This document shows, piece by piece, positions 9,872 to 49,570 of a stretch of 64,000 nt of DNA. The stretch is from Clostridiales bacterium (GTDB lineage: Bacteria > Bacillota > Clostridia > Oscillospirales > CAG-272), in assembly GCA_012514145.1 (NCBI GenBank), contig JAAZAV010000014.1:119265-183264 (forward strand). The letters are read 5' to 3'. A model generated the notes under the pieces. It saw nothing but the letters and a program-made list of their open reading frames with translations. It was not told where the DNA came from and did no database searches. The first letter of the stretch is position 1, and each line of letters opens with the position of its first letter. Made by a program: the position numbers and the translations under genes.

Positions 9872-10813
9872 TCAGGCAAGCAACATCCCGGCGCACACAG
9901 AGAAAACAAGCAAAACAACCACATAGCAGACGATAAATCTCACACGGATAATCGAACCGATAGCTGCCAATGAAGTTATCCGGGTCGCCGGTCCGACTGT
10001 GAGAAAGGCAAGAGCGCTTCCGCGTGAAAGCCCCTGGCTCATAAGTGAAGCCACCATCGGGATCGTACCTCCGCCGCAGGCGTAAACCGGAATACCCGCA
10101 GCGGCAGCCGCAAGAATTCCAAGCGGTGTGGTGGTGTCAAGCTCACCGAACAGCAGCCGCATTGGCAACAGGTCTACAAACGCGGCGATCGAGATGCCGA
10201 TGAGCATCATTCTTCCTACAAACAGCAGATTTTTCGCCACCGCGGCAAGGTATATGCCTATTGTGAACTTCTTACGGGGACGGTTTTCGATGTCGGAGCC
10301 GTCCCCTCTTTCTGCCATAACTTCGGGACGCACAACAAAGTTCTCAGGCAGAGGGAGCGTGAGAAATCCGCAGAGCGCTGCGAACAGAAAGACGCAAAGC
10401 AGGCGTAACAGCGCCATCTCCATTCCCAATCCCCCGGCGGTCATTATAAAGAGCTGCGGGTTCATCATTGAGGAGGCTGCCAGAAACGAAATCAGCGGCG
10501 CCGCAGGTATACCGCCGTGAAAGAGGGCTATGAGCACCGGTACGGTTCCGTAGGTACACAAGGGCGAGAGTATGCCAAGCACCGTAGCGCTGATAATCGG
10601 CAGCACATGCTTCCCCTTTGTAAAGCGGTATATGATTGCCGTCCAGGACGTGAATTTCAGCAGCTCACCGAGGAGACTGCCAAGCACCACATAAGGAAAC
10701 AGCTGAACGAAATAATCAAGTATTCCTTTCAGGAAATCGGTGATTGTGGATTTAAGAAACCAAGGGTCGGTAAATGAGGCGAACCATGCTCCCAGTTCAC
10801 GCAGAAATTCCAT
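9872..10813 (-). CDS. predicted permease, DUF318/ArsP-like family
   Basis: Polytopic membrane protein with paired Cys-containing motifs (LCTYGTVPV and YACGGGTIP) typical of DUF318 permeases. Its start abuts the upstream stop (TGA-A-ATG). Confidence 0.7.
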   Translation of the reverse strand: MEFLRELGAWFASFTDPWFLKSTITDFLKGILDYFVQLFPYVVLGSLLGELLKFTSWTAIIYRFTKGKHVLPIISATVLGILSPLCTYGTVPVLIALFHGGIPAAPLISFLAASSMMNPQLFIMTAGGLGMEMALLRLLCVFLFAALCGFLTLPLPENFVVRPEVMAERGDGSDIENRPRKKFTIGIYLAAVAKNLLFVGRMMLIGISIAAFVDLLPMRLLFGELDTTTPLGILAAAAAGIPVYACGGGTIPMVASLMSQGLSRGSALAFLTVGPATRITSLAAIGSIIRVRFIVCYVVVLLVFSVCAGMLLA

Positions 10814-38693: not shown

Positions 38694-39884
38694 ATGAATA
38701 ACATTGTAAAGATAGGTGTATTCGGCACCAAGCGCGGCAAATCCTTCATAAACGCTTTCAAAGATGTCGACGGTGTGAAGGTCACCGCACTATGCGATAA
38801 AAACACCGCAGCGCTCGATTCGGCAGCCGCTCTCTGCGATCCCGATGTGCAGAAGTATACCGACTTTGACGAATTCATCGAAAAGTCGGGTATTGACGCG
38901 GTTGTTCTCACCAACTATTTCCATCAGCATACCCCCTTCGCCATAAAGGCAATGGAGCGCGGAATCCATGTACTCAGTGAGACCACTCCTGCCTCGACTA
39001 TGGCGGAATGCGTTGCGCTCTGCCGCGCCGTTGAGCGTACCGGCTGCAAGTATATGCTTGCCGAGAACTATCCCTTCATGTGCTCATGTATTGAGCTTAA
39101 GCGCGTGTACGAAAGCGGCAAGCTCGGTCCGGTTATGTATGCCGAGGGTGAATATGTGCACCCCATGTCAGCCGCGGATTCCAATTCCATTTCCCCCGGT
39201 GAATTCCACTGGAGAAGGTGGCTGCCCCGCACCTATTATCTCACCCACTCACTGGCGCCTCTGATGCATATGACCGGCGCTATGCCGCTTAAGGTCAACG
39301 CCCGCACCTCCTGGCGTCCCGAATATTCCCTCGAGCGCGGCCGTGCGGTAGGCGACGGGCACAGCACCATCATGCTTGCCATGGATAATGACTCGGTGTT
39401 CCGTGTAGCCGGCTCATGCTGCTTCGGTCCTCATGGAAACTGGTACCGTCTCGGCTGTCTGCGCGGCGGCATTGAAACGGTGCGCGGCGATCAGAGCTCT
39501 GTCAGGCTTGTTTACAACTCCTGGGAGACTCCAGAAGGTGAGGAAAGCCGCACCTACACAGCCGAATGGAGAGAGCTGGGCGAGCTGGCAAGCAAAGCGG
39601 GACACGGCGGCGGCGACTTCTGGGTATGTTACCACTTCGCCAGGTATCTGACAGATGATGTCAAGCCATTCTTCGACGTGTACCGCTCAACTGCGATGTC
39701 GGCTGTCGCTATTCTCGCGTGGAGAAGCGTGCTTGAGGACGGTGCGACCAAGACTGTTCCCGACTTCTCCGACGAGGAGCAGCGGAAGCTCTGGGAAAAC
39801 GATACCGCCACCCCCTTCCCCACCGATGAGAACGGAATGGCAGCGGTATCTATGCCCTGCTCCAGCCGCGAGTTTAAAGTGTAA
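38694..39884 (+). CDS. Gfo/Idh/MocA family oxidoreductase
   Basis: N-terminal Rossmann KIGVFGTKRGKSF ... VTALCD ... DAVVLTNYFHQHTPFAIKAMERGIHVLSE(T)P pattern. Confidence 0.8.
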   Translation: MNNIVKIGVFGTKRGKSFINAFKDVDGVKVTALCDKNTAALDSAAALCDPDVQKYTDFDEFIEKSGIDAVVLTNYFHQHTPFAIKAMERGIHVLSETTPASTMAECVALCRAVERTGCKYMLAENYPFMCSCIELKRVYESGKLGPVMYAEGEYVHPMSAADSNSISPGEFHWRRWLPRTYYLTHSLAPLMHMTGAMPLKVNARTSWRPEYSLERGRAVGDGHSTIMLAMDNDSVFRVAGSCCFGPHGNWYRLGCLRGGIETVRGDQSSVRLVYNSWETPEGEESRTYTAEWRELGELASKAGHGGGDFWVCYHFARYLTDDVKPFFDVYRSTAMSAVAILAWRSVLEDGATKTVPDFSDEEQRKLWENDTATPFPTDENGMAAVSMPCSSREFKV

Positions 39885-39907
39885 TTGTTGTGAACTTATA
39901 GTTATAA

Positions 39908-39949
39908 CTCCCTGGTACCCAAAATCAAAGGTATCAGGGAGTTTTGTTT
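39908..39949. terminator. hairpin terminator between convergent operons
   Basis: CTCCCTGGTACC / GGTATCAGGGAG 12-bp stem (one G-U pair) followed by TTTTGTTT on the plus strand. Confidence 0.75.
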
Positions 39950-39958
39950 ATTCGGTTG

Positions 39959-40807
39959 TCACAATATAATATCAGAGTAAACGGGCATATGGTCGGAAAT
40001 CGGCATATACCATTCGGGCGCAGCGCGAACGAAGTTCCTGACTGTGCCATCGGCTATACCCCGGCAGAGGATGTGGTCAATTGCCTGTTCAAAGGTACCG
40101 GGATCGGGGTTAAGGTCAAAACCGCTGTTTCCGCATATGTGATGACCTCTTGTTTCGTCCGCATGGGCTGTGGCTATATCATGCGCATGGAGATAGCCGC
40201 GTGTCAGCAGCGATTGAATCGCCTCGGAGGAATACACGGCGTTAAGATCGCCGACGATATACCCGGGACAGTCATACTTTTCACAGAAGGCGTCAACCTC
40301 ATCCGCAAGGATGCCCAGCTGGTATTTCCGGGCTGCACCGCTGAAGGGCTGATAGGATTTTGATTCGGGATTGTCGCTCTTCCACCAAAGATGAGTGGAG
40401 GCAAAGACAAAGAGCCTGCCGTTCTCCTTGACCCGAAATACGGCTATTGTGCGGGATTTGGTTTTGCCGTTGTTGAAGCTGCCCTCGTGACCCGGGAGCT
40501 CTTCATCGTAAATTGCAAAACGCGAGTCAACTAACTCCAGGCGGTCGGCACGGTACCAGATCGGCGTATCGCGCCCCCAAAGTACGGCATAGTCTTTGCC
40601 GAGTGCGGTCAGTGATTCCTGTACCAGTTCGGTCATACGGGCGGAGATTTCCTGCAGACCGATAACGTCGGGAGCGGTCTCGTCTAAAATCCTCGCCACA
40701 CCCGGCGCACGGGCGTTAACGGAGCAGTCAAGCCCTTTCTCCGCCCATGCGGGCTGGTTTGTGTCGCATTTCCACAGGTTAGCGCTCAATATTCTCAGCT
40801 CTGCCAT
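39959..40807 (-). CDS. endonuclease/exonuclease/phosphatase (EEP) family protein
   Basis: LRILSANLW, VIGLQEI, GDLN and the C-terminal SDHMPVYSDI blocks. Confidence 0.85.
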   Translation of the reverse strand: MAELRILSANLWKCDTNQPAWAEKGLDCSVNARAPGVARILDETAPDVIGLQEISARMTELVQESLTALGKDYAVLWGRDTPIWYRADRLELVDSRFAIYDEELPGHEGSFNNGKTKSRTIAVFRVKENGRLFVFASTHLWWKSDNPESKSYQPFSGAARKYQLGILADEVDAFCEKYDCPGYIVGDLNAVYSSEAIQSLLTRGYLHAHDIATAHADETRGHHICGNSGFDLNPDPGTFEQAIDHILCRGIADGTVRNFVRAAPEWYMPISDHMPVYSDIIL

Positions 40808-40818
40808 GTTTATTCTCC

Positions 40819-41829
40819 TTATTTCTTGATGAAATTCGCCGTGGATGCCGTCATGTGCTTTGCATATTCCAGGTCAATTTCATGTTCCAGCGGCTCAATG
40901 CCGGCGATAAACCTGCGCAGATCGCCGATGAGCGCAAGAGTGACATGCTCTCTGATGTCGGTAGTCGGACCGCCGCGGTGAGGAACGAGATATATACCCT
41001 CAATTCCCCGCAGCGACGAATCGGCAGGCAGAGGCTCGCGCTCATACACATCAAGTATGGCGCGTATTCTTCCCTCGCGGCAGACTTTTGCCAGGTCATC
41101 CTCCACTATAATCGCACCGCGTGCGGTGTTGACAAAGAGTGCGTCCGGCTTCATTTTCTCGAAATAATGTGCATCGATCATATGATAGGTATCTTCTCGC
41201 AGGGATTCATGCAGCGATACAATGTCGCATGTTTCGAAAATCTCGTCCATATCGCACTTCTGAGCCCGATATTCCGTCTGCATTTCGGGCAGGAAATAAT
41301 CGGAGCATATTTTCACCGTGCATTCGAACGCCTGCAGCATCTTCGCAAGGTTCTTGGCAATCATGCCGAAGCCGATGATACCAATCGTCTTGAAGCGGAT
41401 ACCGTCGGAGCGGCGGTAGGGCGCCCAGCCGTTGTTATGGGTTTCGTTTATGACATCCACCAGTCTGCGCTGCGCCGCGATGATATAGCCGATTGTCCCC
41501 TCTGCCACCGAATTGGCATAAAGCCGGTTGCCGCAAACAAGACGTATGCCACGAGCGGTCATTTCCTCTGTCATGATACCTGCTACGCTGCCGCCGGTGT
41601 AGCAGACCAGTTTTAGTTTGTCGGCATTTCTCAGAAAATCATCGGTCATCTGAGGCATCCCCCAGTTGCCGAATAACACATCGACACCGGCCAGGGAGTC
41701 CCGCAGTTCGTCACGGCTCATAATTGCATATTTGGCATCGCCGCAGGTCTCAATCTCGGTTTTAGCACGCTCGGTGAAGAATGTGTTCTGAACTTCGGCG
41801 CTGGCGCTGCTGCTTACAAGTATATTCAT
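40819..41829 (-). CDS. D-isomer-specific 2-hydroxyacid dehydrogenase family protein
   Basis: NAD-binding IGIIGFGMIAKNLAKML and the catalytic-region block NTARGAIIVEDDL ... VPHRGGPT. Start set to the ATG at 41829 (AAAGGAA 11 nt upstream) rather than the track's 41883. Confidence 0.85.
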   Translation of the reverse strand: MNILVSSSASAEVQNTFFTERAKTEIETCGDAKYAIMSRDELRDSLAGVDVLFGNWGMPQMTDDFLRNADKLKLVCYTGGSVAGIMTEEMTARGIRLVCGNRLYANSVAEGTIGYIIAAQRRLVDVINETHNNGWAPYRRSDGIRFKTIGIIGFGMIAKNLAKMLQAFECTVKICSDYFLPEMQTEYRAQKCDMDEIFETCDIVSLHESLREDTYHMIDAHYFEKMKPDALFVNTARGAIIVEDDLAKVCREGRIRAILDVYEREPLPADSSLRGIEGIYLVPHRGGPTTDIREHVTLALIGDLRRFIAGIEPLEHEIDLEYAKHMTASTANFIKK

Positions 41830-41840
41830 GTATATGATAA

Positions 41841-41906
41841 TTCCTTTCGCTGCGCTCAAGTCACAAAAGGGTAATGAAACCAAATGCGGCGGCGCAGAGT
41901 TAAAAT
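41841..41906 (-). repeat. 66-nt direct repeat copy R1 (5' leader of the dehydrogenase gene)
   Basis: Hand alignment with 46675-46739 shows one 1-nt indel in an A-run plus 2 substitutions. It contains the ribosome-binding site and ends 11 nt before the ATG. Confidence 0.9.
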
Positions 41907-42045
41907 ATGTGATATGATAAGCTTGAGAAAAGGCACACTACAGAGTACGTGGAGGTTAGTGGACACAGCGCACGCTGAACCGTATGTTTATATGTACCGA
42001 TTTCTCAGGTTCGCAGAGGATTCTATGCCTGAACTTCATTATATC

Positions 42046-42081
42046 GGAGCTGTATCAATATCTTCGTTTTGATACAGCTCC
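42046..42081 (-). terminator. hairpin downstream of Ig-like paralog A
   Basis: Perfect 12-bp stem GGAGCTGTATCA / TGATACAGCTCC, but no clear U-tract on the minus strand. Confidence 0.4.
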
Positions 42082-42129
42082 GCTTTCGGTTGTTATGCGA
42101 GTTTGCCGGGTTGGTCAGGCTTTATGGTG

Positions 42130-44361
42130 TTAAGGATTGATATATTCGATTTTAACATGAAACGTCAGCTTTCCGCCGTATCTGTCGGTGATGATGCAGT
42201 CAGCTTCCGTGTATAAAGTCAAAGAATATATATACCAATCATCACGTCCCTGCAGCCAGCCATCTCCCCCGGTATGTACTTTGTATGATCCGTATTCCCC
42301 GGTCGTGCTGATTCCCAGTTTCGAGCCGTTAACTTCCGTTCTTACTATATGAACCACGGAGCCGTATTTCTCGACGCGATATTCCGGCTCGATGATATAA
42401 AGGTTTTCCGGCACCAGATTTTTGCGCCCCTGCCATTCAAAAGTCAGTCCTTCGCCGAGGACATAATCTCTCATGTCTATCCAATAGAGAGTGCCGTCCT
42501 TGGTGACTTCAAGTTTCGTCTGAGTCAGGTTATCCCGCTTGTATCTCAGCGTGCCTTCAAGCTTTGCCGGCATTGTCGCGAAATTGTGACCGTTTACCTT
42601 TCCTTTGCAGCGGAACCAGCAGCCGGAGGATTCCGACCCGACAAAGACATCGATTTTCTTGGAGTTGGTGTCGGGAAGGTCGACCCAGTTGCCGCCTTCG
42701 CTTCTGCGCTGCCAGACGCACTCGAGACTGTTGACTTTAAGTCCGATAAAATCAAAATCGAAACTGACACGTTCGTTGAATTTAGCTCTGACGCTCTTTG
42801 GATTCCGGATATTGTAATCTTTCGGCGCCGTGTCGTAGGTAATGGAAACCTCGTTGGAAATGACAGGTTCCGAATGCTGCCCGCTGATTACGCAGCGGAA
42901 TTTGAAAGTACCGCTGCCGTCCTCTTTGTACCATGTAAGCGTCGGAGTGTCAAATCCGGCAAACTGTGGGTTTTTATCGGGGACATCTCGCCAGTTGTTC
43001 AGCCATAAAAACTGCCAACGATAAAAGATCAAAGAATCGCCCGTTGCCTTGACATGAATCTCGGCAGGAACATTCTCTGTCTTGACAACGTTTTGCGGCT
43101 GCTCGGTTATTTTCAATTCCAGAAGCGAGTTGACTTTTGCCGGGGAAGAGGATACGGTAAGGCCATATCTGTCGGTGATAAGACAGATATACTCAGGCAG
43201 GCTGCCCGGTAATATTACATTTAATATCGGCGGCGGGTTTACCACGAGCGACAGCGTATTCGTCTGGGCGCCGGAGTAATTGGTTCCATCCTTTATATTT
43301 CTGTATTCATAGGACATGAATACTCCCTCTTCTTTGCTGAAGCTTCCGACCAGCTCCTGCCATTGATACTTAAGGTCAAGACCTTCGGCGCCGACATAGA
43401 GTGTGGCGATTTCTCCCGCCTTCTTTGTCTGTTCCTTCGGCTGCACGGTGATATTGATGCCTGGGCTTATAGGAATTATCGAAGCATAATCGGATGTGAC
43501 GGATTTGCCGTTTTTATCGGTTATGACGCAGCGGTAGCTGCCCGATCTGATCGCATATATATCGGCCAATATCGTCAGCTTCGATGCGGCTGCGCCGGAA
43601 ATGCCGCTTGATTCGTATAGGTCAACCCAGTTCCAGGAAGACGCCGCAGCGCTTTCCGGATTTGAATCGAAGGCTCTTTCATCCCGCTGCCATTTATATT
43701 TAAGACCCTCTCCGGACGCTTTGACTTCGAAGACCGCATAATCGCCCTCTTTGACATTGCAGTCTTCCGGCTGTTTTTCGATAACCGGTACGCCGGACGA
43801 CTCCGAAACCGGTTTCTCGTCGGAACCCGGCTTTTCGTCGGAATCCAAATCCGGCGTCGGCGCTCCTTTAAGCGTCAGGCTGAGCGTTCTCGCCTTCGGA
43901 TCCCAGACGTATTCTTTAGCGTAAAATTTCGCCAGGTCGTCGACGTAGATTATCGTACTGCCGCCGACGTTGAAGCTGTCCACCTTTACGCCGTCAAGAT
44001 AGGTGACAATGTCGGTGAAATACACCGGCATCGCCTTCGAGCCGATAGGATGGGTGTTTTTCTCCGGCTTGTATCCGCCGACTACCGGCACGCTTTCCAG
44101 CCGCCTTACGGTCAGCTCTCTTTCGACTCCGTACCATACTACATAAAAGCCGTAGTTCGAAAGGTCCTCAACTATAACGGCGGTGTTTCCTTTGATGTTG
44201 TAGGAACGAATTGGCAATCCGTTGATATAGGTTATGATGTCGGTGTGAAGAACATGATCGACCACATCCCCGACTTTCGGAGCGGCGAAGATAACCTGCG
44301 GCAGACACGCGAGAATTGTCAGGGTGAGCGCTAAAGCTAAGAATTGCTTGATTGCTTTCAT
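42130..44361 (-). CDS. secreted repeat protein, paralog A: signal peptide, two N-terminal ~65-aa repeats, linker, Ig-like modules
   Basis: Signal peptide ending IFA|AP. Repeats TDIITYINGLPIRSYNIKGNTAVIVEDL and TDIVTYLDGVKVDSFNVGGSTIIYVDDL. Ig-like signatures KYKWQ...GSYRCVITDKNGKSVTS, KYQWQ...EYICLITDRYGLTVSS, FYRWQ...FKFRCVISG and CVWQ...CWFRCKG. GAAAGGAA ribosome-binding site. Confidence 0.8.
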   Translation of the reverse strand: MKAIKQFLALALTLTILACLPQVIFAAPKVGDVVDHVLHTDIITYINGLPIRSYNIKGNTAVIVEDLSNYGFYVVWYGVERELTVRRLESVPVVGGYKPEKNTHPIGSKAMPVYFTDIVTYLDGVKVDSFNVGGSTIIYVDDLAKFYAKEYVWDPKARTLSLTLKGAPTPDLDSDEKPGSDEKPVSESSGVPVIEKQPEDCNVKEGDYAVFEVKASGEGLKYKWQRDERAFDSNPESAAASSWNWVDLYESSGISGAAASKLTILADIYAIRSGSYRCVITDKNGKSVTSDYASIIPISPGINITVQPKEQTKKAGEIATLYVGAEGLDLKYQWQELVGSFSKEEGVFMSYEYRNIKDGTNYSGAQTNTLSLVVNPPPILNVILPGSLPEYICLITDRYGLTVSSSPAKVNSLLELKITEQPQNVVKTENVPAEIHVKATGDSLIFYRWQFLWLNNWRDVPDKNPQFAGFDTPTLTWYKEDGSGTFKFRCVISGQHSEPVISNEVSITYDTAPKDYNIRNPKSVRAKFNERVSFDFDFIGLKVNSLECVWQRRSEGGNWVDLPDTNSKKIDVFVGSESSGCWFRCKGKVNGHNFATMPAKLEGTLRYKRDNLTQTKLEVTKDGTLYWIDMRDYVLGEGLTFEWQGRKNLVPENLYIIEPEYRVEKYGSVVHIVRTEVNGSKLGISTTGEYGSYKVHTGGDGWLQGRDDWYIYSLTLYTEADCIITDRYGGKLTFHVKIEYINP
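43865..44303 (-). repeat. 439-bp near-identical block (copy in paralog A)
   Basis: Aligns without gaps to 46167-46605 at an offset of 2302. About 5 mismatches in a 133-nt stretch compared by eye. Confidence 0.85.
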
Positions 44362-44415
44362 TTCGGTTCCTTTCGTGGTTTGATTTCGTGTTGCGTCTTG
44401 CTTTGAGTTCGGGAT

Positions 44416-44444
44416 ATCGGCGGCTTACACTGTCAGCCGCCGAT
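44416..44444 (-). terminator. hairpin between paralog B and paralog A
   Basis: Perfect 10-bp stem ATCGGCGGCT / AGCCGCCGAT. No U-tract, so it is at best a weak or partial terminator or an RNA-stability element. Confidence 0.4.
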
Positions 44445-44461
44445 TATCCAGGCTTTATTGG

Positions 44462-46663
44462 TTATTCCCAATCATATTCGATTGTAACATGAAATGTCAG
44501 CTTCTCGCCGTATTTATCGGTAATGTTGCAATACGCTTCTTCGTATAATTTTTCAACCACATACATTTCATCGTTGCCTGACCCGCTAAAATAGTACCTA
44601 TAATGGGTTGTACTTATCCCTAATCTCGGTCCATCAACTTGTGTTCTTATTACCCCAATTTCAGAGCCATGTGGCTCGAAGCGAATTTCCGGTTCAATGA
44701 TATAAAGGTTTTCGGGTATCCAGTTGTTGCGCCCTTCCCATTCATAAGTCAGACCTTCGCCTACGATATATTTGCTGACGTCTATCCAGTGCAGCTCGCC
44801 GTTAGTTTTGATTTTCATCGTTGTCTTCGTTAATCCGCTGCGTTTCGGAACCAGCGTACCCTGAAGCTGAGCCGGCATTGTTGTGAATTTATGACCGTTT
44901 ACCGTCCCCGTGCAGCGGTACCAGCAGCCGGAGTTTTCCGGAGTGATCTGCAGTAAAATGCTTGTGTCGGTAGGGTTTTTGCTTGGAAGATCAACCCACT
45001 TTCCGTCATTCCCTTTCATCTGCCATATACATTTTAGACTGTTAACCTTGATATTATAAAATCCAAAACTGAAAAAAGCTTCATCGTAAAATTTGCCTCT
45101 GAAAGTTTTAGGTTGGTATATCTGGTAATCTTCGATCGGCAGTTTGAAGGTAATCGCAGCTTCGTTGGAAATAACCGGTTCGGAATTCGGTCCGTCGACT
45201 ATGCAGCGGACATTTGAAGTACCGCTTGTATCTCGGCTCCATGAAAGCGTCGGTGTGTCAACGCCGGCAAATTTCGGATTATTTTCGGGGATGTCCGTCC
45301 ACTTTCCCAGCCATATAAACTGCCAGCGGTAAGAAAGCGGGAAATCGCCCTCCGCTTTTATATGAAGTTCGGCGGGAGCATTCTCGGTCTGTATAACATT
45401 TTTCGGCTGCTCGGTTATCCTGATTTCCCTGTAAGAGTTGATCATAGCCGGAGAAGAGGATATTGTCATGCCGTAGCGGTCGGTGATAAGACAGATATAC
45501 TTCTGTGTCCCGCCGGGCACTACTACCCCGAACATTTTCGACGCATCGACTTTAACCGTCAGAGTCTTCGTTTTGGTACCGGAGTATTTGCCGCCGTCAT
45601 CAATATTCTGGTATTCGGAGCTCATTAATATTCCGGAGCTGCTGTCGGCGTTGTATTTTAATACCAGCTCTTGCCACTGATATTTTAAGTCACTGCCGGT
45701 TGCTTCAACATAAAGGGTGGCGTATTCTCCCGCCTTCTTTCTTTGATCCTGCGGCTGTGTGATGATTTTAATGCTGGGCTTTAAGGGAATTATCGACACA
45801 TGATTTGATGTGACGGTTTTTCCGTTGCTGTCTGTTATAATGCAGCGATAGCCGCCGGAATAAACAGCGTCAAGGTCCACCAATACGGAGAGCTTCGATG
45901 TTTTTGCGCCGGAAATCCCTCCCCCGTCCGAAAGATTGACCCAATTCCAGGAGGAAGAAGTTGAGGCGCTGTCCGGCGTCGTTGATTTGGAGTCTGATTC
46001 TTCCCGCTGCCATCGGTATTTTAAGCCGTCTCCGGATGCTTTTACTTCAAAGAACGCATATTCGCCTTCTTTAACGCTGCAGCTCTCCGGTTGCTTTTCA
46101 ATGACCGGTTCTCCGGATGAACCAGAGCCCGGTTTATCTTCCGAACCTGAACCCGATGCAGAAGCGCCTTTAAGCGTCAGGCTGAGTGTCCTCGCCTTCG
46201 GATCCCAGAAGTATTCTTTCGCGTAGAATCTCGCCAGGTCGTCGACGTAGATTATCGTGCTGCCGCCGACATTGAAGCTGTCCACCTTTACGCCGTCAAG
46301 ATAGGTGACAATGTCAGTGAAATACACCGGCATCGCCTTCGAGCCGATCGGATGAGTGTTTTTCTCCGGCGTATAGCCGCCGACTACCGGTACGCTTTCC
46401 AGCCGCATTACGGTGAGTTTTCTTTGATCTCCATACCATACGACATAAAAGCCGTACTTCGAGAGATCCTCAACTATTACGGCGGTGTTGCCTTTGATGT
46501 TGTAGGAGCGGATCGGCAATCCGTTGATATAGGTTATGATGTCGGTGTGAAGAACATGATCGACCACATCCCCGACTTTCGGAGCGGCGAAGATAGCCTG
46601 CGGCATACCTGAAAACATTAATACAGCAAGCGCGAGGGCGATGAATCTCTTAATGGATTTCAT
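44462..46663 (-). CDS. secreted repeat protein, paralog B (same architecture as A)
   Basis: Start set to the ATG at 46663 (MKSIKRFIALALAVLMFSGMPQAIFA|AP; AAAGGAA 11 nt upstream). Residues of the two N-terminal repeats are almost identical to A, while the Ig-like part is clearly diverged (YRCIITDSNGKTVTS, KYICLITDRYGMTISS, VRCIVDG, CWYRCTG). Confidence 0.8.
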   Translation of the reverse strand: MKSIKRFIALALAVLMFSGMPQAIFAAPKVGDVVDHVLHTDIITYINGLPIRSYNIKGNTAVIVEDLSKYGFYVVWYGDQRKLTVMRLESVPVVGGYTPEKNTHPIGSKAMPVYFTDIVTYLDGVKVDSFNVGGSTIIYVDDLARFYAKEYFWDPKARTLSLTLKGASASGSGSEDKPGSGSSGEPVIEKQPESCSVKEGEYAFFEVKASGDGLKYRWQREESDSKSTTPDSASTSSSWNWVNLSDGGGISGAKTSKLSVLVDLDAVYSGGYRCIITDSNGKTVTSNHVSIIPLKPSIKIITQPQDQRKKAGEYATLYVEATGSDLKYQWQELVLKYNADSSSGILMSSEYQNIDDGGKYSGTKTKTLTVKVDASKMFGVVVPGGTQKYICLITDRYGMTISSSPAMINSYREIRITEQPKNVIQTENAPAELHIKAEGDFPLSYRWQFIWLGKWTDIPENNPKFAGVDTPTLSWSRDTSGTSNVRCIVDGPNSEPVISNEAAITFKLPIEDYQIYQPKTFRGKFYDEAFFSFGFYNIKVNSLKCIWQMKGNDGKWVDLPSKNPTDTSILLQITPENSGCWYRCTGTVNGHKFTTMPAQLQGTLVPKRSGLTKTTMKIKTNGELHWIDVSKYIVGEGLTYEWEGRNNWIPENLYIIEPEIRFEPHGSEIGVIRTQVDGPRLGISTTHYRYYFSGSGNDEMYVVEKLYEEAYCNITDKYGEKLTFHVTIEYDWE
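46167..46605 (-). repeat. 439-bp near-identical block (copy in paralog B)
   Basis: See 43865-44303. Confidence 0.85.
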
Positions 46664-46674
46664 TTTTATGACCT

Positions 46675-46739
46675 TTCCTTTCGCTGCGCTCAAGTCACAA
46701 AGGGTAATGAAACCAAATGCGACAGCGCAGAGTTAAAAT
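46675..46739 (-). repeat. 65-nt direct repeat copy R2 (5' leader of paralog B)
   Basis: Matches 41841-41906. It contains the ribosome-binding site and ends 11 nt before the ATG at 46663. Confidence 0.9.
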
Positions 46740-46789
46740 TCTTACCAGTTGTTTACATTAAACCATGCTTGTTTAATGTGCGCTTTCTG

Positions 46790-46951
46790 CTATTAAAAGC
46801 AAGAACAAGTCCCCCTGGAATTGTCAAACGTTACAATGCTCTGAAAAAGCGCAGGGGTCACAAGAAAGCAGTGATTGCTATTGCTCGAATGCTGCTGACT
46901 GCCATCTTCAGCGTTCTCAAAAAACACGAACCTTACCCCCCGGAACTTTAT
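46790..46951 (+). mobile_element. IS110-family transposase C-terminal remnant (5'-truncated, non-functional)
   Basis: Only IVKRYNALKKRRGHKKAVIAIARMLLTAIFSVLKKHEPY resembles the extreme C-terminus of IS110/IS1111 transposases (..RGKKKAIVAVARKLL..). No DEDD N-terminal domain is present, and the rest of the 162-aa ORF is not protein-like. Confidence 0.6.
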
Positions 46952-47239
46952 CGCAAATCCGACACTCCTCCGGAGATTAGTAATGTGCCTTTTGATAAAT
47001 CAGTCTTTATTTTACAGCGTCAGAGGTATTTATTTCGTCTTAGTCTTAAGGCGGTTGAGTTTAATTTATATCCATCTCAATCACCTTTACGGAGGTCTGT
47101 TTTTTGCGCCTGTTTTTATTCGCTTAGCCGATCATTTATCAATCTTATCCTCCAATCAAAGTCATTATCTTTCATAATCTATAATATCACCACGCTGACG
47201 CACGGTCAAGTGGCAGATTCATTATTTCCGTTCTTATGC

Positions 47240-47268
47240 TTGTCTGTATCCGGCTAATGTGGTATACT
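47240..47268 (+). promoter_or_regulatory. sigma-A type promoter (extended -10) for the 47312 gene
   Basis: TTGTCT, 17 nt, TGgTATACT. Confidence 0.55.
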
Positions 47269-47311
47269 TTAAGTGGATAAACCTCACCGACATTAATGTG
47301 GAGGCCAGATT

Positions 47312-49570
47312 ATGACAAAAGCTGAAGTTAAAAAACATAACGGTACACCAGCGATCTTCATCGACGGAAAGGTATACCCGCCGATGACCGCTACCATACG
47401 CACTAACTGCCGGGACCATATGAAAATCGACCGCGACTACTACCGCCGTCTCGGTGAATCGGGAATCAAACTCTACTTTCTCATCTGCGACACCGAATGG
47501 CTCAAGCCCGGTGCACTTGCACAGTTCCGTGAGGAGGCTGAGATCTTACTCGAGGAAGTACCCGATGCCTATATCATACTGCGTATAGGACTGCACCCTC
47601 CGGTATCCTGGTGTGAGAGTAATCCCGATGAGCTGGTGCGTTACAGTGACGGCTCGCTGCGTCCGAATCATCTCTATACAGAGTCATACGAGGCGGACTA
47701 TCCTGCCATGTATTCCCTCTGCTCCGACAAGTGGCGCCAGGACGCGGGAAAAGCACTCATGGAAACCTATGACGCCATCAAGGCGCTGCCCTATGCCGAC
47801 AGGATTGTCGGTTACTTCCTGGCAGCCGGCAATACCTCGGAGTGGTACTACCACGACGCCGACCGATCAGACGGCAGTTATCCGGGCTTCAGTCCCGCTT
47901 TCCGCCGCGAGTTTACGCGCTACCTAACAGCAAAATACGGCAGCGACAAGGCGTTGAACGAAGCATGGCGCACCACGGGCGAAACCCTCGATAATCCTAC
48001 TATCCCACCCCAGAACGAGCGCGACTACTTCTGGAAGGTTGAGAATCGAATCTTCAATCCCGGCAGACTTTATTCCACATCGCCGAAACCCGCGATGCCG
48101 AAGCTCAACTGCCACGTGGGCGCATATCTCGATGTTGATAAGAGTCTGCGCACATTGGATTTTCTGCACGCCTGGCACCTCGGCACTGCAAACTCCGTCG
48201 TACACTTCGCATCGCTAATAAAGCAGCGCTCAAAGTATAAACTCACCGGCGCCTTCTACGGCTCCCACAATCACGGCGGCTTCAGCGGAATTGCCTGCGG
48301 AGTACAGCGCATACTTGATTCTGGAGTTGTAGATTTTCTTGCGGCACCCGGCGACTACCGAAATCGCCAGGTCGGCGGTTTCTGCGGTCATCGTGAAGTG
48401 GTCGATGCATTCACGTTGCGGAACTGCATGTACATTATGGAAGAAGACACCCGCACCCACGCCGAGAACACATACTATAACAATTTTGTCGAAATGTACG
48501 ACATGGACGACACTATCAACGTCATGAAGCGGGATTTCGGACGAAATCTCTGCGAGGACATGAACGCCTGGTGGTTTGATCAGCATATCGGCGGTGGGCG
48601 CTATAAGTACGAGGAGATTTATTCGCTGATCTCGCATCAACAGAAAATTGCCGCCAGGTCTTACGAACTCGACCGCCTAAAGCGCAACGAGGTGGCGTTC
48701 ATCTTCGATGAGGAGACACCCCACTGTGTATCAACGCTTGCCCATCGTGAGAGCGTTGAAGATTTTCGCGACTTTGAGATTTCTCGCATCGGACTGTCCG
48801 GAGACCGCTATTATCATGACGACCTGGCGAACCCCGACATGCCCGACTATAAGCTATATGTCTTTGTTGACTGTCACGTATTGACTGCCGATGAGCGTGA
48901 TGCGATACATGCAAAGCTCTCCAAGAACCGTGCCACAGCCGTGTGGATGTGCGCCTCGGGCTTAATAGACCCGGAAGCAACCACACGTCTTGACCCGGCA
49001 CATGTGAGCGAATTGACCGGAATCCCGATGCGGCTGGAGGACACTTATATCTCACCGAAGTTCAAGTTCGTAAAGGACGGTCATCCTGCGTTCGCCGCCC
49101 TTGACACGCATGAAATCTACGGCTTCAGCTACCGACCCATGTTATCGGTAGTCAGTGCAAACTTCTCAAACAGATATTATTACCTATGTCCAGTCGTTGT
49201 GCCCGAGGAATCGCCTGGCGTCACGGTTGCAGCACGCTTCTGCGAGACCGGATGGCCGTCGGTTGCGGTAAAGGATAACGACAGCTTCACCTCTGTTTTC
49301 GTATCGACCCGCTCCTGCCGTGCCGACTTCTTCCGTGAAGCCGCCAGGTATGCCGGATGTCATGTCTTCTGCGACAGCGATGATGTAATCTACGCCTCAC
49401 GCAACTTTGTAACCATTCACGCATCGTCAAGTGGAGAGAAAAAACTGCGCTTCCCTTCAATCTGCTCACCATACGAGGTGTATGAGGAAAGAAAATACGC
49501 AGAAAATACCGACAGCATAACCTTCACTATGTACCGCGGCGAAACGAAGACCTTCGCGATTTTCGAGTAA
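47312..49570 (+). CDS. hypothetical protein, putative GH42-like TIM-barrel glycosidase
   Basis: 752 aa, no signal peptide. FSPAFRREFTRYLTAKYGSDKALNEAWRT resembles the F..WL...YG....LN.AW block of GH42-type enzymes. The assignment is tentative. Confidence 0.7.
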   Translation: MTKAEVKKHNGTPAIFIDGKVYPPMTATIRTNCRDHMKIDRDYYRRLGESGIKLYFLICDTEWLKPGALAQFREEAEILLEEVPDAYIILRIGLHPPVSWCESNPDELVRYSDGSLRPNHLYTESYEADYPAMYSLCSDKWRQDAGKALMETYDAIKALPYADRIVGYFLAAGNTSEWYYHDADRSDGSYPGFSPAFRREFTRYLTAKYGSDKALNEAWRTTGETLDNPTIPPQNERDYFWKVENRIFNPGRLYSTSPKPAMPKLNCHVGAYLDVDKSLRTLDFLHAWHLGTANSVVHFASLIKQRSKYKLTGAFYGSHNHGGFSGIACGVQRILDSGVVDFLAAPGDYRNRQVGGFCGHREVVDAFTLRNCMYIMEEDTRTHAENTYYNNFVEMYDMDDTINVMKRDFGRNLCEDMNAWWFDQHIGGGRYKYEEIYSLISHQQKIAARSYELDRLKRNEVAFIFDEETPHCVSTLAHRESVEDFRDFEISRIGLSGDRYYHDDLANPDMPDYKLYVFVDCHVLTADERDAIHAKLSKNRATAVWMCASGLIDPEATTRLDPAHVSELTGIPMRLEDTYISPKFKFVKDGHPAFAALDTHEIYGFSYRPMLSVVSANFSNRYYYLCPVVVPEESPGVTVAARFCETGWPSVAVKDNDSFTSVFVSTRSCRADFFREAARYAGCHVFCDSDDVIYASRNFVTIHASSSGEKKLRFPSICSPYEVYEERKYAENTDSITFTMYRGETKTFAIFE

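Follow-up and report, generated by a model that had tools for sequence, protein, structure and literature searches.

Two tandem genes in a 64,000-nucleotide stretch of the genome of an uncultured Clostridiales bacterium from a biogas reactor (assembly GCA_012514145.1, contig JAAZAV010000014.1, positions 119,265 to 183,264; the whole stretch is called the window, and coordinates are those of the window) encode members of a lineage-specific secreted family with multiple immunoglobulin (Ig) modules of the bacterial and phage I-set type, carried on a divergent 'stalk' domain, and do not constitute a foreign, eukaryote-like island. The downstream gene, here called A (42130–44361, minus strand, 743 residues), specifies a protein identical to GX628_02945 ('hypothetical protein') of the metagenome-assembled genome (MAG) GX628, and the upstream gene, B, occupies 44462–46663 of the same strand (733 residues). 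Both products consist of a signal peptide, a 142-residue N-terminal domain of two repeats, an acidic Ser/Gly linker and five Ig-like modules. They are uncharacterised, yet they are built from known kinds of domain and follow a common design of Gram-positive surface proteins, and we consider it on balance probable that they are Sec-exported, non-enzymatic, surface-displayed binding proteins of an adhesin-like type, with an N-terminal anchor, an Ig rod and a distal tip.

How might such a protein be arranged? After cleavage of the signal peptide, the double repeat, of the Cu_amine_oxidN1 type (PF07833), would hold the protein non-covalently at the cell envelope, and it may also pair the protein with a partner, possibly as a dimer. 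The acidic linker would act as a flexible spacer, the five I-set-like modules would project outwards as a rod, and the C-terminal module, which is the most variable, would be the distal, ligand-binding tip. By analogy with phage Ig-like domains (discussed below), the ligand is probably a glycan or other surface polymer on particles, other cells or phage.

Architecture of the gene pair

Genes A and B are real, and the open reading frame (ORF) coordinates bear out a preliminary description of this DNA in which they were seen as two same-strand ORFs of 743 and 733 codons, lying head to tail with a period of 2302 bp. The ORF of B extends beyond the ATG at 46663 to a TTG at 46693 (44462–46693), and B is counted as 733 residues because a good Shine–Dalgarno sequence, GGAAAGG, precedes the ATG; the corresponding sequence before A is AAAGGAA. 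The two proteins are 62% identical overall, and this identity is unevenly spread, at ~94% over residues 27–168 and 48–64% in the later modules.

Each protein has a single N-terminal hydrophobic segment (residues 1–26; 44284–44361 in A and 46586–46663 in B, minus strand) ending in IFA/AP, an AxA-like site that in A reads PQVIFA/AP and is the predicted point of cleavage, and no hydrophobic 19-mer was found in either protein outside residues 1–30. A potential lipobox cysteine, Cys19 of A (in ILAC), occurs neither in B nor in any of the seven close homologues, so the signal is of the signal-peptidase I type and not that of a lipoprotein. Neither protein has a C-terminal LPXTG motif, the sole LPxT-like string being LPDTN at residue 562 of A, within module 4, and there were no matches to the Pfam domains SLH, CWB2, LysM or SH3 (E≤1 for scans of the entire proteins, E≤10 for single domains), nor to any catalytic family in Pfam, NCBIfam or PADLOC. 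In these respects the preliminary description was sound: hydrophobicity scanning and Pfam confirm the signal peptide and the lack of a catalytic motif, LPXTG, SLH or C-terminal transmembrane anchor, and support a secreted, non-catalytic, repeat-built architecture. A role in defence was considered and dropped, as the PADLOC defence-system models gave no family match to A or B at E≤0.01.

Between the N-terminal domain and the Ig region lies the linker (43795–43857, minus strand; residues 169–189 of A), which is acidic, rich in Ser, Gly, Asp, Pro and Glu (isoelectric point, pI, 4.05), and poorly conserved in sequence between the two paralogues.

The rest of A, residues 190–743, is best counted, from its sequence, as five Ig-type modules, the fifth being the least certain. 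Module 1 (43468–43794, minus strand, like all that follow; residues 190–298) contains the matches to the Pfam families Ig_3 (PF13927) and I-set (PF07679), which fall at residues ~190–285. Scanned whole, A and B scored 37.6 and 38.0 bits for Ig_3 (cut-off 30), and 24.8 and 26.3 bits for I-set (cut-off 23.7); scanned alone, module 1 still passes as I-set (25.8 bits) and reaches 23.7 bits, under the cut-off, as Ig_3, and modules 2–5 alone are under both cut-offs. Modules 2 (43126–43467, residues 299–412) and 3 (42838–43125, residues 413–508) are homologous to module 1 and to each other (hhalign 99% for modules 1 and 2, and 96–97% for module 3 with either), and the divergent module 4 (42547–42837, residues 509–605) is more weakly related (hhalign 49% to module 1) and keeps the characteristic W550 and C585. 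In the C-terminal module 5 (42133–42546, residues 606–743) the corresponding motifs, at W643 and C722, are separated by an insertion of ~70 residues. An alignment of eight family members showed that a strand-C Trp (224, 334, 449, 550, 643) and a strand-F Cys in a Y/F-x-C motif (278, 393, 490, 585, 722) are invariant in all five modules, and BLASTP alignments with the regular-repeat proteins P0025 and P0009 keep their register across module 4 and on into 'GEGLTFEWQ' of module 5. It is the invariant Trp and Cys residues, together with this register, that make five the best count. The assignment to the Ig_3/I-set class proposed in the preliminary description therefore holds, the Pfam cut-offs being passed through module 1; of its 'four to five' modules, three stand firmly on profile comparison and the fourth weakly, and the fifth is upheld by motif and register and not by profile.

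The N-terminal double repeat

The N-terminal domain (residues 27–168; 43858–44283 in A and 46160–46585 in B, minus strand; 94% identical between the two) comprises two β-rich repeats of ~65 residues that are homologous to each other (hhalign 97%). Modelled by AlphaFold2 (AF2) with the family alignment (pLDDT, predicted local distance difference test, 96; pTM, predicted template modelling score, 0.89), it forms two β-β-β-β-α-β-β units. A word-indexed homology search with the domain alone returned only eight short proteins, and a profile built from 13 copies and searched against 1.84 billion representative proteins found 1857 at E≤1e-3, of which 441 reached E≤1e-30; the family, to which proteins P0129–P0272 belong, has at least 1857 clusters at 50% identity. 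Every member looked up that had a name in its source was a 'hypothetical protein'.

What kind of domain is this? The preliminary description had noted a loose resemblance to the copper-amine-oxidase-N 'stalk' domain, and this was borne out by relatives that pass the PF07833 threshold and by comparison of folds. Among 53 domain-only relatives, drawn from 150 listed profile matches at E≤1.4e-38, 24 segments matched PF07833 at E≤0.1 and 29 had no such match, and two passed the gathering cut-off of 24.2 bits (at 27.7 and 24.4 bits). The match of the 27.7-bit segment covers profile positions 3–107 of 108 and segment residues 21–137, and so spans both repeats, which implies that the whole two-repeat unit corresponds to one divergent PF07833 domain. 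When the model was compared with BFVD by Foldseek, the best matches had probabilities of 0.99–1.0, and three of the best four were phage proteins annotated 'Copper amine oxidase' (the third-best being a peptidase C51 protein); the top two had E=1e-3 and 4e-3, probability 1.0 and TMq 0.46–0.49. The N-terminal domain is thus a divergent PF07833 stalk domain, connected to that family through intermediate sequences and by fold.

We propose that the domain serves in retention at the cell envelope or in oligomerisation. In 153 of 170 domain-bearing proteins it lies directly after the signal peptide (it is C-terminal in 14), and its partners include Ig_3, SprB, WG repeats, trypsin-like proteases, BspA-type leucine-rich repeats (LRR), GH26, CAP, phage-type lysozyme and fn3, among others; since these are varied and unrelated extracytoplasmic domains, a module for display or anchoring would fit. 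A comparable situation is found among established stalk proteins of Firmicutes (OlpC of Clostridium thermocellum, ScaG of A. cellulolyticus, those of Desulfotomaculum reducens, and PaSOD of Paenibacillus), in which PF07833 is likewise N-terminal on secreted proteins with varied passengers, and the halves of the A/B domain, as modelled, appear to share with PF07833 proteins a pattern of β-sheet plus one helix. In D. reducens PF07833 occurs in surface-exposed proteins and cell-wall hydrolases, and PF07833 proteins were recovered in a surface-shaving proteome (PMC4137172); OlpC and ScaG, cohesin proteins of the cell surface, also contain the domain (PMC3413522), and it has been listed as a predicted wall-binding module in Paenibacillus hydrolases (bioRxiv 10.64898/2026.09.23.753664).

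Several observations weigh against surface display by an anchored Ig rod. Unlike PF07833 proteins, A and B are themselves below Pfam detection (the A domain had no PF07833 match at E≤10, and the whole of A or B none at E≤1), no NCBIfam model matches their N-terminal domain, Foldseek found nothing in PDB (best E=0.7), and searches of PDB sequences with the domain and with its profile gave chance-level matches only. Its neutral pI (6.3–7.1) lends no support to an affinity for anionic wall polymers. As to the rod, profile comparison by hhalign did not show homology of module 5 to the other modules, and a full-length, single-sequence AF2 model was unusable (pLDDT 30), so that the Ig fold is a prediction from sequence; nor does the non-conserved genomic context offer any functional clue. 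Finally, the sole biochemically studied PF07833 domain found in a literature search, at the N terminus of PaSOD, brings about homodimerisation and has no catalytic role (PMC10432803), which is not wall binding.

The PaSOD result, the neutral pI and the unmatched SLH, LysM, CWB2 and SH3 domains would suit the main rival idea, that A and B are released, soluble agglutinins in which the N-terminal domain dimerises and the resulting bivalent Ig rods cross-link particles or cells. This we think unlikely, though deserving of serious attention: the position of the domain behind a signal peptide and before dozens of unrelated passengers, proteases and glycosidases among them, better fits a display module, and PF07833 proteins are present in the surface-shaving proteome (PMC4137172). 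The function of PF07833 is in any case unsettled, wall association having been deduced and dimerisation demonstrated for PaSOD, and the roles of anchor and dimeriser are not mutually exclusive.

The most useful by-product of the analysis is a large, unnamed branch of Cu_amine_oxidN1 that probably serves Clostridia for surface display. The branch is a good candidate for a display domain of general use at the clostridial surface. Its clusters (at least 1857) could be annotated with a dedicated profile, and binding data on a single member would permit a function to be proposed for well over 1000 protein clusters.

Relatives of the Ig modules

The preliminary description called the Ig modules 'eukaryote-style', which is misleading: this is a property of Pfam family names and not of genes A and B. 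All of the 288 matches in a homology search were bacterial, mostly Clostridia proteins described as 'immunoglobulin domain-containing', LRR or hypothetical proteins, and the closest structures and profiles were those of phage. In PDB, the phage Ig-like chains 9ncf_S and 9c2d_S match the Ig part at E~1e-12, the latter coming from the tail of Shigella phage Sf14 (PMC11821841); phrog_3995 ('tail protein') matches at E=1e-18, over module 1 and the start of module 2, and head decoration of the T4 Hoc-like type (phrog_2973) at E=1e-5. Sequence identity is 26–27% with FelixO1-like tail proteins and 23–27% with phage proteins overall, and is confined to the repeat modules.

The cysteines point in the same direction. 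Extracellular Ig domains of eukaryotes have a canonical disulfide between Cys residues of strands B and F. This is absent from A and B: strand F retains its Cys (in YRC, YIC, FRC, FRC and DC, from module 1 to module 5), the strand-B position is occupied by F, L or V (as in 'AVFEVKA'), and the extra Cys residues at 201, 548 and 581 lie off that position. It might be supposed, nevertheless, that the modules were recently acquired from a eukaryote, as Ig_3 and I-set are mostly metazoan families and the PDB search gave weak or chance-level matches (E=0.03–0.6) to DSCAM, titin and Roundabout. The significant homologues are all bacterial or phage, however, the strand-B Cys is missing, codon usage and GC content at third codon positions (GC3) are near those of host genes, and the duplication is older than the split between two bacterial lineages (see below), so that a eukaryotic origin is effectively refuted.

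A phage origin of the pair, either as a prophage remnant or as a bacterial decoy mimicking the Ig decorations of phage, has more to recommend it, in that the best profile match of the Ig part is to phrog_3995, Hoc-like and FelixO1-like tail proteins also match, and a transposase fragment of the IS110 family adjoins the genes. We nevertheless regard it as highly improbable, in view of the low identity to phage proteins and its restriction to repeat modules, the failure to find a close relative of A or B among the 2.9 million contigs of IMG/VR, the absence of phage structural, lysis or integrase genes nearby and of any PADLOC match, and the hundreds of chromosomal Clostridia proteins that have the same repeats.

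These Clostridia proteins (such as P0025 of Eubacterium sp., and the LRR–Ig proteins P0020 and P0056) share with A and B the signature QP..v..G..a.F.V.A.G.gL.YqWQ ... YrC.vTD..G..v.S, can be aligned with them in register over several modules at 26–34% identity, and are also secreted and free of catalytic domains. They differ in having regular repeats of ~100 residues and in the domains found at the N terminus or as partners (PT linkers, BspA LRR, PKD), whereas A and B have five dissimilar modules, insertions of 20–70 residues and the stalk-type N-terminal domain. No experimentally characterised protein was found among these relatives in the searches made. The Hoc-like, FelixO1-like and Sf14 tail domains of phage belong to the same I-set-like repeat class and provide the strongest profile matches and the best functional analogy; Ig-like domains of this type have been reported to bind glycans (PMC9271167, PMC9853417), and accessory, surface-exposed Ig domains of phage adhere weakly to glycans (PMC9271167, PMC9853417, PMC13370021). 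The phage proteins bring binding domains of their own, by which they are fixed to capsids or tails; A and B, encoded on the chromosome, have a Sec signal and carry the stalk-type domain.

In general design, A and B resemble the MSCRAMMs, Big-domain adhesins and SLH/CWB2 proteins of Gram-positive bacteria, which also have a signal peptide, an attachment module, a spacer, a β-sandwich rod and a variable tip, and which also commonly form multigene families. The differences lie in attachment, which in those proteins is either C-terminal and covalent (LPXTG plus sortase) or by SLH or CWB2 triplets, none of which is found in A or B, and in the Ig families concerned, which are DEv-IgG, Big or Cna-B in the Gram-positive adhesins and I-set-like here. 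Among the roles suggested in the preliminary description (adhesin, host or phage interaction, decoy), an adhesin-like one is the leading candidate, and interaction with a host seems unlikely because the close relatives with a stated source are all from biogas or anaerobic-digester assemblies. An analogy with the tandem superantigens IbpA and IbpB of Ruminococcus gnavus was also entertained and dropped: the searches gave no link in sequence, and the sources are not gut.

Evolution and relocation of the array

Full-length relatives of A and B are few (59–63% identity), with the digester sources just mentioned. In JGI metagenomes, a scan using the family alignment brought up no locus beyond the one already known, and exact-match contig look-ups with A, P0001 and B found none on record. 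MAG GX897 (GCA_012800735.1), like three independent assemblies, has the gene in triplicate, the tandem copies encoding 737, 733 and 800 residues. B is the orthologue of copy 2 of GX897 (77% amino-acid identity), and A most resembles copy 3 (69%). The spacer between B and A, with a GC-rich hairpin (44412–44449, minus strand; CGGCGGCTGAC...GCCGCCG, −25 kcal/mol, z = −3.5, without a U-tract), is kept in both spacers of the GX897 array (at ~9915–9945 and ~12225–12250 of L001). Taken together, the pairing of copies and the conserved spacers indicate that the duplication is older than the separation of the two organisms and that the array was inherited as a unit. The hairpin may be an intra-operon attenuator or an element that stabilises mRNA; a second hairpin, after A (42045–42082, minus strand; a perfect 14 bp, 50 nt past the stop codon, z = −5.6), is terminator-like, again with no U-tract.

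Are the Ig modules under diversifying pressure, as the preliminary description had suggested from the divergence of the pair? This was not seen in the ratios of nonsynonymous to synonymous divergence (dN/dS; Nei–Gojobori, pairwise per module and in 40-codon windows), which are 0.07–0.16 for the N-terminal domain (A versus B: dS 0.33, dN/dS 0.08) and 0.17–0.55 for the Ig modules, no 40-codon window exceeding 1; with the few sequences at hand, site-specific selection may escape notice. Instead there is a gradient from a strongly constrained anchor domain to a fast-evolving C-terminal module, module 5 being the fastest-evolving part (45–66% amino-acid identity, dN/dS 0.25–0.55). Paralogues within a genome have a lower dS in the N-terminal domain (0.33–0.45) than orthologues do (0.72–1.01), which argues for gene conversion within genomes, i.e. 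concerted evolution; the Ig modules show the reverse pattern, with dS higher between paralogues than between orthologues. The comparison of B with GX897 copy 2 (L001:10001–12202) gave very uneven dS values, of 0.13 for module 2, 0.83–0.85 for modules 4 and 5 and 0.72 for the N-terminal domain, pointing to a mosaic history involving recombination or gene conversion. The array thus offers a compact case of mosaic evolution, in which the anchor is homogenised, the tip diverges and regulatory leaders are swapped on relocation (see below). A more ambitious interpretation, which we put forward as an unlikely conjecture, is that the double repeat defines a large, unnamed class of display modules of the cell envelope in Clostridia, and that A and B belong to a variable surface-display system with a converted anchor, a diversifying Ig tip and segments exchanged between lineages. 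If so, this would be a bacterial counterpart of the variable Ig decorations of phage, possibly serving in the recognition of partners, phage or particles in anaerobic digesters. More soberly, the stalk-domain branch and the mosaic array have a modest wider value and leave current concepts unchanged.

The surroundings of the array differ greatly between the two genomes. In GX897 it lies among genes for FtsH, unknown proteins, a metallophosphatase, a sortase and a giant SLH protein, and sugar genes are absent from the vicinity. In the window, one flank contains genes for an FGGY kinase, an amidohydrolase, an AraA-like isomerase, a GFO/IDH/MocA oxidoreductase, an EEP-family protein and a 2-hydroxyacid dehydrogenase, and the other those for a 752-residue protein with no Pfam match and a heparinase II/III-like protein. 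The neighbours were rightly described beforehand as cytoplasmic carbohydrate enzymes, and they have no signal peptides.

A direct repeat of ~82 nt brackets the pair. Its upstream copy (46659–46739, minus strand) belongs to gene B and its downstream copy (41825–41906, minus strand) to the 2-hydroxyacid dehydrogenase gene, whose ATG is at 41829; in each case it makes up the leader, Shine–Dalgarno sequence and ATGAA. The copies are 87–95% identical, 4833–4834 nt apart and the only two in the window, and upstream of B this segment, resembling the dehydrogenase leader, has replaced the array's own spacer. Just outside the upstream copy, on the side where GX897 has copy 1 of the array, is the remnant of an RNA-guided transposase of the IS110 family (46823–46933, plus strand), a C terminus of ~37 codons (model positions 307–343 of 343) within an ORF (46769–47257) in the AT-rich spacer (40.6% GC) between B and the gene for the 752-residue protein. 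The simplest reading is that a rearrangement brought a shortened array (copies 2 and 3) here and duplicated the dehydrogenase leader. Biogas-reactor Clostridia carry these genes as a small family, with two or three tandem copies in a genome. The event would have cut the array between copies 1 and 2, fused copy 2 (B) to the leader duplicate and left the IS110 fragment alongside. An exact-match look-up with the dehydrogenase gave a single 2.9-kb Logan contig from SRR5007708, L028, an independent assembly that is 100% identical to 38976–41869 of the window and ends in the downstream copy of the repeat. Assembly may have stopped there because strains differ at this junction in having or lacking the 4.8-kb unit, or the end may be only an effect of coverage.

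An empty-site test using the gene for the 752-residue protein in 185,579 species genomes yielded 22 relatives and no definable insertion site. Local synteny was poor in all, none of the 22 had an Ig gene beside it, and the closest (L006, 91% amino-acid identity) shares no neighbouring gene with the window. Together with the GX897 context, this supports the view that the pair lies outside any syntenic block conserved among relatives.

The 'AT-rich islet' of the preliminary description fared less well. Its figures, of 35–47% GC in the pair and 55–60% in the flanks, were wrong: the computed values are 49.7% for A and 47.4% for B, compared with 53.0 ± 2.3% for 41 other genes of the window (z = −1.4 and −2.4). 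At third positions, A (59.1%) and B (54.1%) are inside the local range (60.6 ± 4.3%; z = −0.3 and −1.5), and the shift is mostly in GC1, reflecting an abundance of K, S, T and V and a scarcity of A, L and R in the proteins. In synonymous codon usage A and B are the most deviant of twelve genes of at least 550 codons, yet modestly so (distances of 0.095 and 0.107, versus 0.029–0.072 for the other ten), and 'compositionally foreign' was an overstatement. The near-native GC3 argues for a move within the genome, or an exchange between close relatives, rather than recent transfer from a distant source.

Might the pair, in its present location, act outside the cell to capture a polysaccharide for the flanking genes of sugar and uronate catabolism, whose heparinase II/III-like enzyme, isomerase, kinase and dehydrogenases would break it down? 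The close similarity of the leaders before B and the dehydrogenase gene (which may bring about their co-regulation), the carbohydrate enzymes nearby and the glycan binding of phage Ig-like domains (PMC9271167, PMC9853417) might be taken to favour this. We consider it decidedly improbable: the GX897 array has no sugar genes nearby, none of the 22 relatives of the flanking gene adjoins an Ig gene, and the neighbouring enzymes, lacking signal peptides, leave no extracellular degradation step to be served. The leader itself has no Rfam match (there were none to any Rfam family in 41500–47500) and folds weakly (z = −2.0 and −1.3), and for the same reasons the possibility that it is a riboswitch was rejected.

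Finally, we draw attention to two features upstream of the pair. The spacer beyond gene B contains two promoter-like sites, back to back, one at 47181–47209 (minus strand, TTGACC-17-TATTAT), facing B and ~520 nt upstream of its ATG, and the other at 47240–47268 (plus strand, TTGTCT-17-TATACT), facing the gene for the 752-residue protein; each has an extended −10 TG, and both are consensus matches only. The 752-residue protein (47312–49570, plus strand) has no Pfam match, adjoins the heparinase II/III-like gene and has full-length relatives (23–91% identity) in MAGs of Clostridia, Phycisphaerae, Lentisphaerae, Verrucomicrobiota and Planctomycetes, and is a candidate for an uncharacterised family of carbohydrate-active enzymes.

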